From the NCBI GenBank assembly GCA_964507855.1, contig CAZDQS010000002.1, forward strand, positions 91,284 to 155,283: 64,000 bases of DNA. Reading direction: 5' to 3'. This DNA comes from an uncultured Candidatus Saccharibacteria bacterium. Its GTDB lineage: Bacteria > Patescibacteriota > Saccharimonadia > Saccharimonadales > CAZDQS01. Positions 4,401 to 54,079 of the stretch are shown here, in pieces (position 1 is the first letter of the stretch; every line of letters begins with the position of its first letter). Below the pieces are notes generated by a model, which worked only from the letters and a program-made list of their open reading frames with translations, ran no database searches and was not told the origin of the DNA. A program made the position numbers and the translations under genes.

Positions 4401-7400
4401 CGGAGACTGTTAAGCTCTTGCCTGCACCAAGTTCTGTATCCTGATTCAGGCTGATAAGCGCTGCGTTATTCGGGCCAAGAACCAGTGTCTGCCCCTCTTC
4501 TTCGGTATCGATAGATGGAACTAATATGCCGCCGTCCGGCCCAGTCTCAAACTGCTCACCACCGCCCTCATCGCCGCCACCCTCGCCTGAACCACCGCCA
4601 CAAGTACCGGCAGTGACGATACCGCCGACAACCGTGACATTCTGCAGCACCTGGTCAGCACCACAATTAACATCGATCCCGAGCTCTTCGCCAACAGCAA
4701 AGGCAGTCCCGGCAATAACGACGCCGTTCTCTGTGTCGACCCTCAGGACATCATTGCCGGCAGCATCTTGGACTCGAAATGCGGTTTCTGAGTCAGTTTT
4801 AACAGTAGTTACGCCTTGTGACGTAAAGGTGCGGCCGGTGTACAGAACAGTATTCTGGTTGAGCGAGATGCGCGGAGCGCTTCCTGTTAGGTTGACTATC
4901 ATAAGGTTGCTTCTGCTGTTGTTGACCACCGCCACGATTCCGTCCTTTGTAGCTACAGAAACAGTCTTTGCACTTCCATTGCCATCCGAGACATCAACCG
5001 TTCCAACAGATTGAGGAACAGTATCATCAATATTAAGAACATGTAGTATGTTGGCTGATTCATCCGTCATGTAGAGATATTTGCCCGATTCGCTGACGAC
5101 AAGATCAGATGGGGCGCTGGTAATCGGCGTGGTTGCAACGGGCGACAAAGTACCCGAGCCCGCAATGGTCGAGACATCATACACGCGCAATGTGGAATCG
5201 TTGACAAACGGTATGTAAGCAAGCCCGTTGCTGACCGCAATACCAGCCGGCTTGGTGCTTGTCATGTTGTGGTTTGTAAATGGCAAGCTGTTCGCCAGCG
5301 GATTGGAGATGTTGTAGATACGGAGGCCTGAGTTCGTAGTAACACCCTGCATGACCGCATAGAGCCGGTCGCCGACAATATCCAGCCGGATCTTAGCCAC
5401 GCTAGAAAGGAGTGTCTGCGGATTCGTGCCGAGAGTAGCCGGGTTCTCTGGATCGGTTACATCGTACCGGTCGATATAGCTCCAGTTATCGGCGGCGATG
5501 TAGGCAACATAAAGATAGTTTCCCTTGACGGCAACAGCTTGGACAGAAGCACCGGCGTTTCTGGTTGTTATGGTTTTTATAAGTGAAGGTGAAGCGTCAG
5601 GGTCACTCACATCATAAATTTCAACCGAGGTAGTGCCGACGGCGACATAGGCTGTTGAGCCATCATCACTGACAGCAATGTCGTTAGCCGCACCGTTCAT
5701 TGTTGGTGCACTCCCGGCCAACTGCGGGCTTTCCGGATCGCTGATATCAACAATCTGTACGTTATTAATGATAGATGAGGCTACATACGCATAATCTCCG
5801 TTGATTGCGACGCTGTTCGGCAAGCTGCTGATGTTGACTTTGCCAGTCGTGCTATCGCTGATACTGCCGCCAACATTACTGTTTTCGGTCGGTGCATCAA
5901 CTGAGCCAAGATCGATATTCTTACCCTCTGTATCGACCACAAGATACGCATCATCGGTGCTATCGGATACCTTCAACGCTGTTGTTGAGCTGGTCTTAAC
6001 AGACGTACTGCCCTGGACGGACAACGTCTTACCCGACCCTATGGTCGTATTCTGGTTGAGGTTGATAGCATTGGCGTAGGTGCTGCCGATGTTAAGTGTG
6101 CTGCCAAGAATATTGGCATCAAAAGTCTGAGACTGAACAACGCCCAGAGAAAAGATATTACTGGCCGTGACAGAGCTGCTGAACGTACCCTTCACCGCTG
6201 TTATGTTGCCGCCAAGATCAAGACTGCCTGTCATATTACCGCTACCGTAAACTTGCAGTGTTGTATTGCCATTGCCGAGGTTCATGGTCTGGAGACTGTT
6301 ATTGTTCGGATATGTATTAGCGATGTAGGCGACACCGTCCTGCATAACCATGTCGGTACCGCGCCGCAAGAGCGCCTTGCTGCCCACTAGCTCAGGAGCA
6401 TCAGGGTCACGAGTGTTGTAGAGCTGGATATATCCGTGCGCATTGCTTGGCCCGCCGTAGTAGGTTATGACGATGACATAGCCAGCGTGCGCGTGAACAA
6501 CCGTTGGATTAGAGTAGATTTCACTGGCTTCCGTCGTATGCTTGAGCAACATTGCCGACGGATTACTGATATCAAATGTCTGCATCGTTGCGGCATTGGA
6601 GTTGATCACATATGCCCGATTGCCAAAAATACTGATGTCGGCAGGACCTGTGTTTGTTATTGCGGTGCTGATCGCAGCAATGTCGTTCGGGTCACTGGCA
6701 TCAAATGACATTATCCGGTTGCTGGCACGTTCTGTAACATACAGATTGGTGCCATAGATGGTAATTGCTGTTGGCCACGCATCTGGGCCAGCGCCAATGA
6801 CAAAGTCAGCAGACTGCACCGGATCGACCGGATCAGAAATATCAAAGGTATAGATGTGGTCATTGCCAAACGAGCCTGACTCGTTGCTGACGATGAAGAT
6901 ATAGTTGCCTTCCCGTACCATGTCTACCGGATAGTTGCCGGTCGCAACGGACTTTATGAGCTGCGGGTCGGTCGGACTGCTGACGTCATAGACGCGAAGA
7001 CTACCAGTTGAACTCGTCGGCTTATCAAGAATGTACAGATAGTCAGAGGCAGCAATCATCTTAATCGGGCTGGTTAGCCCGGTGCCTGTCGTCTTCGAAA
7101 GTACGAGGCTTGGGTTGGCTGTCGGATCGGATACATCAAAAACATAGAAGAATGACCCGTCAATCGTAACAAACGCATAATCACCGGAGACCGCCACCGC
7201 AGACAATGGAGTACTACCGCTCGGTACGCTTGCGGAGGTAGTCGAGCCAGATGGTAATTCACCGGTAAGCTCAGACGATGAAGGGGCAGCCAGCGAACCA
7301 ATAGTTACCTTCATATTCAGAGTATTGCCGCTGATGAGCGAGGCACCGGCCGCGTTCTGCAGATCAAAAGCCTCTACCGCGTCGGACAGACCTTTCATGA

Positions 7401-48320: not shown

Positions 48321-48474
48321 AATCCCCCTTACACCTCTGGGAACTCCATCCCAGCTTTGTTTAGTCGAAGCTAGTAGTGTCGTATCCCTCTACTTGAGGC
48401 CGATAACGTCACGTTCGCTTCACAGAGTTATTCACCCTGGGAAGTCACAGAACCGATCTATGGCCTCCATAAAG

Positions 48475-48503
48475 CAAAAAACCCGCTAACTTTCGTTAAC
48501 GGG
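48475..48503 (-). terminator. intrinsic terminator (second of two downstream of tRNA-Gln)
   Basis: Minus strand reads CCCGTTAAC-GAAA-GTTAGCGGG-TTTTTTG. Confidence 0.6.
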
Positions 48504-48516
48504 TACGTTTGGGTAC

Positions 48517-48542
48517 AAAAAATCCGGCTATTTCTAGCCGGA
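48517..48542 (-). terminator. intrinsic terminator (first downstream of tRNA-Gln)
   Basis: Minus strand reads TCCGGCTA-GAAA-TAGCCGGA-TTTTTTG. Confidence 0.65.
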
Positions 48543-48564
48543 TACAATCTTCTGTTTACTTCTC

Positions 48565-48600
48565 TTGGCTGGGGATGAGGGATTCGAACCCCCGATCACG
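48565..48600. repeat. prophage att repeat, tRNA-proximal copy (36 bp)
   Basis: Identical to 12718-12753; covers the 3' 35 nt of tRNA-Gln plus 1 nt. Confidence 0.9.
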
Positions 48601-48639
48601 GGACCAGAACCCGTTGCCTTACCGCTTGGCCAATCCCCA
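48566..48639 (-). tRNA. tRNA-Gln (anticodon CUG), CCA encoded
   Basis: Minus strand TGGGGAT-TG-GCCAAGCGGTAAGGC-A-ACGGG-TTCTGGT-CCCGT-GATC-GGGGG-TTCGAAT-CCCTC-ATCCCCA-GCCA. U1-A72 and a clean cloverleaf. Confidence 0.9.
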
Positions 48640-48706
48640 ATAAACTCTACTCATTCTACTATACTGATTATTAAGGTTGAGGATGCTTCTGCTCGAGCGG
48701 TAAGGT

Positions 48707-51308: not shown

Positions 51309-51638
51309 ATGGAATTGAAAAACGGCCGGCTGCTCATTGAGCAAGATGAGTACCGGGCAGGCTATTTGGCACATCCCGATGATTTGCCTGACTGGCAGGA
51401 AGCTTGCCACACTACTCCTGATAAAATCCGCGTTCCCTTGCCTAATGGCCTTGCTCAAGCCATCTACTCGATCAGTGTTGAGTTTCTGCCCTCTTTTCTT
51501 AGCTCAATGCAACAGGTGACTGAGCTCGAACAATTGCCACCTCGCCTCCGCCGCTCGGCGGAAAACGACGCCCGGGTCTTAAAGCACTATAAAGCTATCG
51601 CCGACAATGCGCTCTGCCAAGCACAAGAGGCAGCCTAA
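51309..51638 (+). CDS. hypothetical protein
   Basis: 109-aa ORF ending at a bidirectional terminator. Confidence 0.4.
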   Translation: MELKNGRLLIEQDEYRAGYLAHPDDLPDWQEACHTTPDKIRVPLPNGLAQAIYSISVEFLPSFLSSMQQVTELEQLPPRLRRSAENDARVLKHYKAIADNALCQAQEAA

Positions 51639-51685: not shown

Positions 51686-52075
51686 CTATACGTCTAGGTC
51701 ATCGAGCTCTTCAAGCTCTTTGCGGGTCCGGCTGACAACGCTACTAGCCTCTTCCTGGTCTTCAGCATTATCATCCGTGCCTACAGCCGTATCATCCGCC
51801 GCGCCGCTAAAGCTGCCGTTTGCCTGACCGTTGTCAACAATTTTGAGGTTGTAGCGAGCGTCATTCTTGGTGCCAAGTGCTCTCAGCAGCGTACGCAGGC
51901 TTTGTGCGGTTGCGCCCCGCTTACCAATCACGCGGCCGAGATCCTCTGGATCTACCGTCAGCTCCAACAGTACGCCTTTTTCATCAATCGTTCGCGTAAC
52001 TTGTACCGCTTCCGGCTTACCGACAAGTGATTTGACGATGTATTCAACAAACTGTTGGTCAATGCTACTGCTCAT
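51686..52075 (-). CDS. KH-domain RNA-binding protein (YlqC/KhpA-like) with an acidic C-terminal extension
   Basis: VEYIVKSLV..PEAV.V......LLELTVDPEDLGRVIGKRGATAQSLRTLL contains the GxxG KH motif. ACGGAG RBS before the ATG at 52075. Confidence 0.8.
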   Translation of the reverse strand: MSSSIDQQFVEYIVKSLVGKPEAVQVTRTIDEKGVLLELTVDPEDLGRVIGKRGATAQSLRTLLRALGTKNDARYNLKIVDNGQANGSFSGAADDTAVGTDDNAEDQEEASSVVSRTRKELEELDDLDV

Positions 52076-52150
52076 GGGATTCTCCGTATTACCTGACGCT
52101 ACCAATTATAGCCTATGCGGGCATATGTCGCAGCTATTTTGCTTGTGGTT

Positions 52151-52555
52151 TTAGCTTTCGCTTGGCTGCTCTTCACTAGCTGCCGGTGCCTCAGCGGGCG
52201 CTTCGGTTGCTTCAGCAGGAGCTTCCACTGGAGCTTCTTCCTGCGGCTGGTTTTTGCGTAGCTTCTCAGGGTTCCTCGTGGTCCGCTGCTTCTTGGATTC
52301 CAGCTTGACCCATTTTGGCAGCTTGACGCCTTCTGCCTTCAGCAGACGGGCGACACGATCAGTTGGCTGGGCGCCATGCTCCACGTAGAAGCTGGCCTTC
52401 TCCTTGTCCAATACTGTTTCTTTTGTGTGTGGGTTAAAGTGACCCAGACTAGCAACAACCTTGCCGCTGGTAGGGGTCCGGCGCGAGTCTTGGACTACGA
52501 CGCGGAATTGAGCGTGGCCTTTGCGGCCGGTACGCTGCATACGAATAACGAGCAT
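52151..52555 (-). CDS. rpsP: 30S ribosomal protein S16 with an extended C-terminus
   Basis: MLVIRMQRTGRKGHAQFRVVVQDSRRTPTSGKVVASLGHFNP. Confidence 0.9.
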   Translation of the reverse strand: MLVIRMQRTGRKGHAQFRVVVQDSRRTPTSGKVVASLGHFNPHTKETVLDKEKASFYVEHGAQPTDRVARLLKAEGVKLPKWVKLESKKQRTTRNPEKLRKNQPQEEAPVEAPAEATEAPAEAPAASEEQPSES

Positions 52556-52593
52556 AAATGCTTCATCCCTTCATTAATTTACTTCAAATGACT

Positions 52594-52622
52594 ATTTTAC
52601 AGATAATCACCTCTGTTGTCAA
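52594..52622 (-). promoter_or_regulatory. rpsP promoter (TTGACA-17-TAAAAT)
   Basis: On the minus strand the -35 is the rc of 52617-52622 and the -10 is the rc of 52594-52599, with a 17-nt spacer. Confidence 0.6.
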
Positions 52623-52648
52623 TAATTGCTATTAGTTTGTTAACATTA

Positions 52649-52677
52649 TTGACAATCTTTGACCTTTAGTGTATTAT
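52649..52677 (+). promoter_or_regulatory. near-consensus promoter of the unassigned RNA (TTGACA-17-TATTAT)
   Basis: -35 at 52649-52654 and -10 at 52672-52677. Back-to-back with the rpsP promoter; both -35 boxes sit in an 11-bp inverted repeat, ATTATTGACAA. Confidence 0.6.
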
Positions 52678-52683
52678 TGCGCT

Positions 52684-53367
52684 AATTGGCAATGAGTTAA
52701 TTGCCAAGTTTTTTAACAAGAACAGGTAGTACTTGGTACTGTGCTCGGAGCGCTTAAAAACTTTAAGCCCTGCAAGCACAGTACCACCGTGCACACGTCC
52801 AGACTAATAGAGACAAGAAGGGAGAGTTACAAGAGCTAGCCAGAGAACCCCGAGTCGAGCTTCAAGCGCGAACTCTTGTTCCTGTCAGCGAACAACCCAT
52901 GGGCCTGGAAAGGACTATGGTGAAGCGAAAACCCTAGTCCGTCACAAGACGGACACACTCACACACGCCGGAGCGGTCAGTGGCAGCTACGACGCTCACA
53001 TCATGAGTACCAGCTGAGCTGACCGCAAGCTGTGGAAGCGACGCTTCCACCCGACGGGCACCTCACCGCCCATCCACCCCCGGGGTGCCCGAAGGTCGTT
53101 AAGACGGAAGTGCTGCACACATCGCAGTTGGATAGCCATCACACCGACCATCACTCCACGCTATCCAATTCGGGTTGAGTCTTCTCCCCGAACACTTCCG
53201 TCCGCTGGGCGAGGGGTGCAGGCAGCAAGCCGCGAAGCGTAACGATGACCCCGGTCATTACTACGCAGCCGCGCTAGCGCCGCATCCCTCGCCCCCTTCA
53301 CTACCTGTTCTTGTTTTACCCAACCTCAATAGAAACTTATCCGTCCGCAATCAGGACGGTTTTTTTG
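52684..53367 (+). ncRNA. large (~0.68 kb) highly structured RNA of unknown class
   Basis: No ORF over 70 aa in any frame; consensus promoter and CCGTCC-7-GGACGG-T7 terminator. At least 8 helices of 7-13 bp (for example 53103-53112 with 53193-53202, and 53207-53219 with 53282-53294). Confidence 0.6.
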
Positions 53368-53386
53368 TTGCTTGCTTTACGTAGAC

Positions 53387-54079
53387 TTAACTATAAAGCT
53401 TCAGAGCTGCTTCGGCGGCGCTTTGCTGGCCGGCCTGCTTGCTCGGTCCAGTTCCTTGGCCCTTTAGTGTACCGTCGACGAAGACACCAACCGTAAAGGT
53501 TTTGTCGTGGTCGGGGCCTTCCTCGTTCAGGACTTTATAAACTGGCGTGAAGCCTTCACGGCTCTGTACCAGTTCCTGCAAGTGCGACTTCGCATCCATC
53601 CAGGAGCCGGTCTTGAGGATTTCCTCAAATGTCACCAGTAGGCTCTCTTGAATAAACCGCTTTGCCTCGTCATAACCCTTATCCAGATACAGTGCGCCAA
53701 TAACCGCCTCGTAGCAGTTAGCCAGGATCTGCGCCCGGGCACGCTCCGTCCCCCGCTTCTCGCCCCGGCTGAGGCGAAGCAGCGGCTCAAACTCATAGCG
53801 GCTGGCAGCCGCACTAATGCTCTCTGTCCGTACCAATGCGCTACGCCAGTTGGTCAATGTACCTTCTGGATCTTCAAAATTATTGTACAAATACTCAGTT
53901 ACCACCAACTCAAGCACAGCGTCACCCAGGAATTCCAGGCGCTCGTTATGCTCGCGGGCCGACTTCTTGTGCTCGTTGATATACGATCGGTGGGTAAATG
54001 CAGTAATAAGCAGCTCAATGTCACCAAACTCAACACCGAGCTTGTCTTTAGCAAATTGTTTGTAAAGGTTAACGTCCAT
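53387..54079 (-). CDS. rnc: ribonuclease III
   Basis: ERLEFLGDAVLELVVTEYLY signature plus a C-terminal dsRBD. Confidence 0.9.
   Translation of the reverse strand: MDVNLYKQFAKDKLGVEFGDIELLITAFTHRSYINEHKKSAREHNERLEFLGDAVLELVVTEYLYNNFEDPEGTLTNWRSALVRTESISAAASRYEFEPLLRLSRGEKRGTERARAQILANCYEAVIGALYLDKGYDEAKRFIQESLLVTFEEILKTGSWMDAKSHLQELVQSREGFTPVYKVLNEEGPDHDKTFTVGVFVDGTLKGQGTGPSKQAGQQSAAEAALKLYS

Follow-up and report, generated by a model that had tools for sequence, protein, structure and literature searches.

A candidate gene for a large, stably folded non-coding RNA on a strain-specific insert between rnc and rpsP in a Saccharibacterium

We describe a predicted RNA gene in a 64-kb stretch of DNA from an uncultured Candidatus Saccharibacteria bacterium (64,000 nucleotides; positions 91,284 to 155,283 of contig CAZDQS010000002.1, assembly GCA_964507855.1), referred to here as the window. 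Genes of the minus strand are arranged in the order nusB-nudix-rnc and rpsP-KH protein-trmD, and the two groups are separated by an 831-nt gap between rnc and rpsP. A first-pass annotation, based on the letters alone, had proposed that this gap holds an unassigned transcription unit for a large structured RNA. The host is a Saccharibacterium called soil-type; its RNase III shares 72–83% identity with the enzymes of 80 species representatives in GTDB, which with few exceptions are labelled Saccharibacteria or Saccharimonadales. The features of the locus, in coordinates of the window, are:

52151-52555, minus strand: rpsP (open reading frame; start at 52555)
52594-52622, minus strand: rpsP promoter, TTGACA-17-TAAAAT (consensus scan, 11 of 12 positions; conserved in relatives)
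~52623-53380, strand not assigned: inserted DNA, ~760 bp, carrying the whole unit (flank alignment with short-gap relatives)
52649-52677, plus strand: promoter of the element, TTGACA-17-TATTAT, sigma-70-type (consensus scan, 11 of 12 positions)
52684-53367, plus strand: predicted non-coding transcript, 684 nt (promoter and terminator bounds, fold statistics)
52686-52714, plus strand: AT-rich 5' hairpin followed by GUUUUUU, weak and terminator- or attenuator-like (scan, fold)
53341-53367, plus strand: intrinsic terminator, CCGTCC-7-GGACGG followed by T7 (consensus scan)
53387-54079, minus strand: rnc (open reading frame; stop at 53387)

The two promoters lie back to back, as the first-pass annotation had described, and each matches the consensus at 11 of 12 positions. 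Sites that fit TTGACA-17-TATAAT with at most one mismatch are rare: four occur in the 64-kb window, compared to 0.24 expected from shuffles, and both promoters are among these four. The canonical terminator and the weak hairpin with its U-run were likewise found again. With 20 nt left between the end of the terminator and the rnc stop codon, the unit stays clear of rnc and is not antisense to it. Judged by consensus match, promoter and intrinsic terminator bracket the element on one strand, as in an independent sigma-70 transcription unit. In the fold of the full-length RNA, the U-run of the 5' hairpin pairs with 53331-53337.

An 11-nt perfect inverted repeat, ATTATTGACAA, occupies 52616-52626 and 52645-52655. 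Through this repeat the -35 region of the element is an inverted copy of the rpsP -35 region, and the two divergent -35 boxes are mirror copies 18 nt apart. The rpsP promoter, including its 17-nt spacer, is conserved across ~170 Saccharibacteria loci as TTGACAACAGRGGYGnTTATCTGTAAAAT, and the spacer holds a 5-bp inverted repeat, ACAGA/TCTGT. This conservation suggests an operator or another signal embedded in the promoter.

Is the insert real sequence, and does it encode a protein? The sequence is 100% identical in five contigs from the four independently assembled SRA runs SRR7082966, SRR7082968, SRR7082976 and SRR7082984, one contig spanning the distance from rnc to rpsP; given these identical copies, the insert is real. 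Four of five independent Logan contigs of the strain end inside the element (at 52931, 53061, 53304 and 53328), which may reflect low coverage, or trouble in sequencing or assembling hairpin-rich DNA. No open reading frame in the gap exceeds 70 codons, in agreement with the first-pass annotation; the longest comprises 69 amino acids (53175-53384, TTG start). None of the six frames is free of stop codons, which are spaced as in random sequence of 60% GC, and plus-strand frames that start with ATG are at most 12 codons long and have no Shine-Dalgarno sequence. Eight small reading frames of the gap have no Pfam match at E<=10, blastx and tblastx found no similarity of the element to related loci or to the reading frames in their gaps, and a phmmer search with the 69-residue frame against 1.84 billion representative proteins returned one match, a low-complexity proline-rich sequence. 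Because Pfam, blastx and tblastx give no signal and the protein search yielded this low-complexity match alone, the region is non-coding, and the 684-nt product contains no credible reading frame. Likewise, no remnant of a known protein, which would have spoken against an RNA gene, was detected by blastx/tblastx, Pfam or phmmer. The GC content is 0.55–0.625 over 52800-53299, 0.37–0.385 in the adjacent promoter DNA and 0.50–0.58 in the flanking genes. The region had been described as richer in GC than its flanks; this is clearly true with respect to intergenic DNA, whereas the excess over the genes is slight.

The 684-nt plus strand folds with a minimum free energy of -294.6 kcal/mol, compared to -207.8 +/- 6.7 for dinucleotide shuffles (z = -12.95). 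Its minimum-free-energy and centroid structures are almost identical. The minus strand reaches z = -9.5, with a centroid far from the minimum-free-energy structure. Ensemble diversity per nucleotide is 0.069 for the plus strand, 0.157 for the minus strand and 0.17–0.34 for shuffles; positional entropy is 0.32, 0.63 and 0.7–1.6, respectively. All eight helices that had been recognised by eye are present in both the minimum-free-energy and the centroid fold, some of them 1–3 bp longer. A further helix had been overlooked: 16 perfect base pairs between 52715-52730 and 53300-53315, extended by 7 bp, close the whole molecule (P1). Three long-range helices are nested inside P1, Russian-doll fashion, together with seven local hairpin or junction domains, each of which is stable on its own (z -2.1 to -7.0). 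All elements of the fold are on the plus strand:

52715-52730, plus strand: closing helix P1, 5' arm (inverted-repeat search, fold)
53300-53315, plus strand: closing helix P1, 3' arm (inverted-repeat search, fold)
52817-22/53294-99, plus strand: nested long-range helix, overlooked before (fold)
52886-90/53203-07, plus strand: nested long-range helix, overlooked before (fold)
52924-28/53096-100, plus strand: nested long-range helix, overlooked before (fold)
52734-52786, plus strand: domain 1, 53-nt hairpin, 12 perfect bp and a distal stem (z = -6.9)
52841-52884, plus strand: domain 2, 44-nt irregular hairpin (z = -2.1)
52897-52954, plus strand: domain 3, two hairpins with GGAA and ACAA loops (z = -3.9)
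52967-53030, plus strand: domain 4a, 64-nt stacked hairpin with a CAUCA loop (z = -3.6)
53032-53095, plus strand: domain 4b, 8-bp hairpin and 10-bp hairpin, the latter with a 17-nt C-rich loop ACCGCCCAUCCACCCCC (z = -4.4)
53103-53202, plus strand: domain 5, 100-nt three-way junction; 23-nt loop with a tandem CCAUCAC(A/U)CC repeat (z = -6.8)
53208-53293, plus strand: domain 6, 86-nt hairpin, ~34 bp with 1-3-nt bulges (z = -7.0)

The 242 unpaired bases of the plus strand are strongly biased in composition (A 40%, C 34%, G 11%, U 15%; A+C 74%), and the asymmetry is confined to the loops. Such an asymmetry is hard to explain by DNA palindromes and is expected from selection on a plus-strand RNA. 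Loop asymmetry, promoter and terminator agree as three independent indications, and this agreement points to a real plus-strand RNA. In the predicted fold, no two unpaired segments or loops are complementary over 5 nt or more, so no potential for pseudoknots or kissing loops is visible. In this sense the description of the RNA as ornate is not supported: the fold consists of plain nested, mostly perfect Watson-Crick hairpins without loop-loop complementarity. A single-stranded linker of the predicted RNA contains the self-complementary hexamer GUGCAC (52789-52794), which could mediate dimerisation and is compatible with chance.

Do other Saccharibacteria carry the element? Our comparison covered 168 related loci (80 GTDB species, 8 nearest-relative and 80 Joint Genome Institute (JGI) metagenome loci). 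The order nusB-nudix-rnc-rpsP-KH-trmD is kept in essentially all 80 GTDB loci and recurs in the closest relatives recovered. Typical relatives have ~100 nt at the rnc-rpsP site (roughly 40-160 nt), with the rnc stop running almost straight into the rpsP promoter; in 48 GTDB loci the spacer is shorter than 200 nt and holds little beyond this conserved promoter. About one third of the loci have a spacer of 0.3-2.4 kb, filled with mutually unrelated DNA, mostly ORFans along with guaA and a zeta-toxin/AAA_33-like kinase. Alignment of the flanks identifies ~52623-53380 as an insert that brings its own promoter and terminator. The only sequence common to the gap of the window and those of its relatives is the rpsP promoter.

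The first-pass annotation had suggested a search for homologues, the failure of which would speak against a new RNA, and none was found. With the element as query, blastn (word size 7-9), nhmmer and tblastx matched the shared rpsP promoter alone in the 168 related loci. A distant blastn search of phage and plasmid collections gave no match, and eight exact 15-18-mers searched in IMG/VR produced chance seeds without extension. A single-sequence covariance model of 53101-53296 (the 3' 196 nt), run on 26 sources, retrieved itself and otherwise nothing better than E=1.1. Among 5.8 billion proteins, the nearest RNase III is 85% identical (that of locus L132), and no strain is therefore closer than this one, save the identical copies in four SRA runs. 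By these comparisons the element is strain-specific, a singleton on an islet that is hypervariable, rather than something conserved between rnc and rpsP. Lacking homologues, it offers no covariation to test and cannot be called a new RNA family or class. It occurs once in the 64-kb window, and the sequences beside the 16-bp inverted repeat, TTTTTT and TTACCC, form no target-site duplication. Some relatives share DNA of their own downstream of rnc: one block is common to L074 7748-7928 (= L211), L189 4208-4399 (~190 nt) and L015 6709-6779 (~70 nt). A segment of L015 that overlaps this block is structured (z about -6) and unrelated to the element of the window.

Three other loci carry inserts at the same site that are poor in open reading frames and strongly folded:

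L132 5715-6420: 706-nt insert in the relative with the 85% identical RNase III (z = -11 to -12)
L066 4590-5110: 521-nt insert (z = -6.9)
L051 6690-7145: insert, strongly folded

As with the element of the window, it is the strand opposite rnc that gives these three their better-defined ensemble and that has A-rich, G-poor loops. No promoter of their own was detected, Rfam found nothing relevant in them, and no terminator separates rnc from rpsP in relatives. Compared with the window element on both strands, they give Smith-Waterman scores equal to those of shuffles, and nhmmer and blastn find nothing. Structured inserts are rare (about 4-7 of ~170 loci); in the JGI set, none of 37 long gaps reaches z <= -4.5. 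A ~55-nt module is found both in L132, at ~6290-6345 of the opposite strand, and in L051, where it lies at ~6715-6770 on the rnc strand. In it, a hairpin of 11 bp with the loop ATTCGG, whose stem shows two compensatory changes, precedes CCAAAA.CCGACAGGC. The opposite orientations of the module relative to rnc and rpsP suggest DNA-level movement or inversion at the site. Hairpins of the type CTTTTG/CAAAAG, which resemble this module, recur in L066. In L132, a called gene of 110 amino acids without a Pfam match (6115-6447) lies in the rnc-rpsP spacer and mostly overlaps the structured insert.

Does the element belong to a known RNA family? Rfam 15 at gathering score recognised tRNA-Gln alone in the whole window. 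At E<=10 over 52450-53500, a 1-kb search space, four chance-level matches appeared, all to eukaryotic microRNA or long non-coding RNA models. ARAGORN found no transfer-messenger RNA (tmRNA). RNase P models RF00010 and RF00011 had no match at E<=10, and the P4 motifs (GGAAAGUCC; ACAGAA..GGCUUA) are absent from the element. Signal recognition particle (SRP) RNA, 6S RNA, group I/II introns and small ribozymes gave no covariance-model match at E<=10 either, and the same holds for OLE, ROOL, GOLLD and HEARO over 52450-53500. That the element matches neither RNase P, tmRNA, SRP nor 6S RNA had been noted by eye; Rfam and ARAGORN agree.

The first-pass annotation had likened the RNA to the large orphan RNAs. 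In OLE, ROOL and GOLLD all stems are supported by covariation, and the structures include pseudoknots, kissing loops and A-minor contacts (PMC12286853); ROOL and GOLLD are found in phages and prophages and near tRNA islands (PMC12286853). Like OLE (RF01071), ROOL (RF03087) and GOLLD (RF01998), the element would be a stand-alone non-coding gene of ~0.6-0.8 kb with a multi-domain fold and an unknown or protein-independent function. Unlike them, it has neither homologues nor loop-loop complementarity nor a phage context, and it resides in a chromosomal neighbourhood of core genes: its neighbours are nusB-nudix-rnc and rpsP-KH-trmD, and no phage sequence matches it. The only tRNA that ARAGORN found is tRNA-Gln at 48566-48639, 4 kb away. 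As far as covariance models tell, the element is not a member of OLE, ROOL or GOLLD. What stands of the comparison is a large, stably folded, non-coding plus-strand unit; what does not is a class comparable to these three, as there are no homologues.

Two further systems share some of its traits. Ribosomal RNA precursors have 5'/3' stems that are cut by RNase III. As in these 16S/23S precursor stems, the ends of the element are joined around a structured body by a helix of 16 + 7 bp; unlike the precursor stalks, this helix, which RNase III may cut, encloses no ribosomal or other known stable RNA. Protein-sequestering small RNAs include CsrB/RsmZ, with GGA loops, and CrcZ, with CA-rich A-rich motifs. 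Like them, the element exposes single-stranded loops on many hairpins and repeats C/A-rich motifs, for instance the tandem CCAUCAC(A/U)CC. In contrast to CsrB/RsmZ and CrcZ, its motif is neither GGA nor AANAANAA and is weakly enriched, its size is far greater and its pairing more rigid; we know of no Csr or Crc partner here. In the literature we found neither an account of an RNA of this kind from Saccharibacteria nor a paper citing the SRA runs.

How, then, should the insert be read? We favour, with a probability of roughly 0.55, a self-contained gene for a non-coding RNA, specific to this strain and carried by a ~760-bp insert where the rnc-rpsP spacer normally measures ~100 nt. Several points weigh against this. 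Nine of the 221 predicted pairs (4%) are G-U and many helices are perfect, which also fits young or DNA-level inverted duplications. The terminator-like hairpin begins ~3 nt past the predicted start and could abort most transcripts. Loop motifs are weakly enriched, with 6 copies of CATC where 3.2 are expected (P=0.11) and 2 of CATCAC where 0.3 are expected (P=0.03). Paired with the 70 translation-start regions of the window, loops and linkers give duplex energies no better than shuffled loops; a role as an anti-Shine-Dalgarno or base-pairing small RNA is thus unsupported. No homologue turned up in any searched collection, hence there is no covariation and no sign of conservation, and the closest relatives are without the element, so that any function would be dispensable or very recent. 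Near-perfect helices, the 5' hairpin and singleton status make a neutral or selfish origin a serious rival, although we judge it unlikely on balance. The insert would then be structured DNA, a remnant of a foldback element or miniature inverted-repeat transposable element (MITE) or a set of nested inverted duplications in a recombination hot spot, with a functionless transcript and a promoter and terminator that are incidental or came from the donor. Such elements share with the insert the size of a ~0.6-kb non-coding unit, a perfect 16-bp inverted repeat (here bounding ~570 bp) and a variable intergenic site, one that holds unrelated cargo in about one third of relatives. The nearly pure Watson-Crick helices, the -35 region copied in inverted form from that of rpsP, and the oppositely oriented L132/L051 module, suggestive of mobility or inversion of DNA, fit as well. 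One point against an origin of this kind is the strong strand asymmetry: DNA palindromes should be strand-symmetric, whereas the loops are A/C-rich and G-poor and the plus-strand ensemble is twice as well defined. Moreover, the promoter ranks among the best of the window, and the terminator sits where it should; the single copy in 64 kb has no relatives in the collections searched; and the inverted repeat, which has no flanking target-site duplication, lies within the promoter-terminator unit rather than at the ends of the insert.

Could the structured inserts instead form a fast-evolving group of RNAs in the rnc-rpsP spacer (window, L132, L051 and L066), in which duplex-rich stability is selected and sequence is not? 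A possible role would be that of an RNase III-cleaved insulator or decoy, separating rnc read-through from the rpsP operon. All three other inserts are poor in reading frames and strongly folded, and all four are better defined opposite rnc, with A-rich, G-poor loops. Moreover, because no terminator lies downstream of rnc and ahead of rpsP in relatives, read-through from rnc would in the window be antisense to the RNA, a perfect RNase III substrate, and the closing stem, like the long hairpins, is long enough to be cut by this enzyme. We nevertheless consider this grouping doubtful, as the inserts show no similarity by Smith-Waterman, nhmmer, blastn or covariance model (best E=1.1), the other three are without a detectable promoter of their own, most relatives do without such an insert (about 4-7 of roughly 170 loci have one), and adjacency to rnc is simply conserved gene order. 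In our view slightly more doubtful still is the idea that the window holds the first recognised example of an unseen kind: a large, rigid, A/C-looped Saccharibacteria RNA, the best-equipped of a set that turns over in the rnc-rpsP spacer (the same four loci), with fold or duplex content kept and sequence not. It might act as an RNase III-linked decoy or insulator, or as a protein scaffold, in an ultra-small epibiont. A decayed protein gene or a small-protein gene would fit the ORFan protein genes present at this site in other lineages, and is very improbable given the randomly spaced stops in six frames, the lack of Pfam, blastx or tblastx signal, the low-complexity match alone among 1.84 billion proteins, and plus-strand ATG frames of 12 codons or fewer without Shine-Dalgarno sequences. 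The least credible reading is a highly divergent version of a known RNA (RNase P, tmRNA, SRP, 6S, a group I/II intron, OLE, ROOL, GOLLD or HEARO). The size range overlaps that of some families, and patescibacterial RNAs can be atypical. Against this stand the chance-level Rfam 15 matches, the negative ARAGORN result, the missing P4 motifs of RNase P and the absence of the element from the 168 relatives, where conservation would be expected of a housekeeping RNA.

If the favoured reading of a self-contained RNA gene is correct, the promoter would fire divergently from that of rpsP, and the terminator would end the 684-nt transcript short of the rnc stop. The 16-bp (+7-bp) helix would clamp the 5' and 3' ends together. 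With its ends paired and little single strand open to nucleases, the RNA is likely to be abundant and long-lived. RNase III would probably trim the closing stem or the ~22-34-bp hairpins, as in the maturation of stable-RNA precursors. We infer that the RNA most likely acts in trans, binding proteins as a scaffold or a decoy. Its helices would form a rigid frame from which C/A-rich loops are presented, such as the tandem CCAUCAC(A/U)CC in the 23-nt loop and ACCGCCCAUCCACCCCC in the 17-nt loop; KhpA (51686-52105), ribosomal protein S1 and cold-shock proteins are possible partners. Since relatives are without it, the element is accessory rather than essential. We regard it, on present sequence evidence, as a credible unclassified large structured non-coding RNA gene, an orphan and not a demonstrated new class.

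Two other spots of the window are worth recording. An ORFan of 109 amino acids (51309-51638, plus strand) separates the KH-protein gene from trmD and is oriented opposite to both, and L132 carries different genes there; this spot may be a second small variable site of the same operon. The tRNA-Gln gene is followed by two tandem intrinsic terminators (48390-48703, minus strand). A crude scan had flagged this segment as an extreme structure, which was rejected, as proper shuffles give an ordinary z = -3.8.

Genomes of Patescibacteria measure ~1 Mb and have little spare DNA, and to our knowledge their non-coding RNAs are almost entirely unexplored. In this genome, 0.76 kb are given over to a predicted, strongly promoted and exceptionally well-folding RNA. 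As a singleton, the element supports no claim to a new RNA class yet; if expressed, it would be among the largest orphan RNAs of Patescibacteria and well suited to structural studies. The comparison with relatives may be just as important: the rnc-rpsP islet is hypervariable, and in a few lineages it holds inserts that are unrelated and yet hyper-structured in a similar way. Natural transformation is known in Saccharibacteria (PMC10633639), and the islet could show how new genes for RNA, or structured selfish DNA, originate and are replaced in reduced genomes that are naturally competent.

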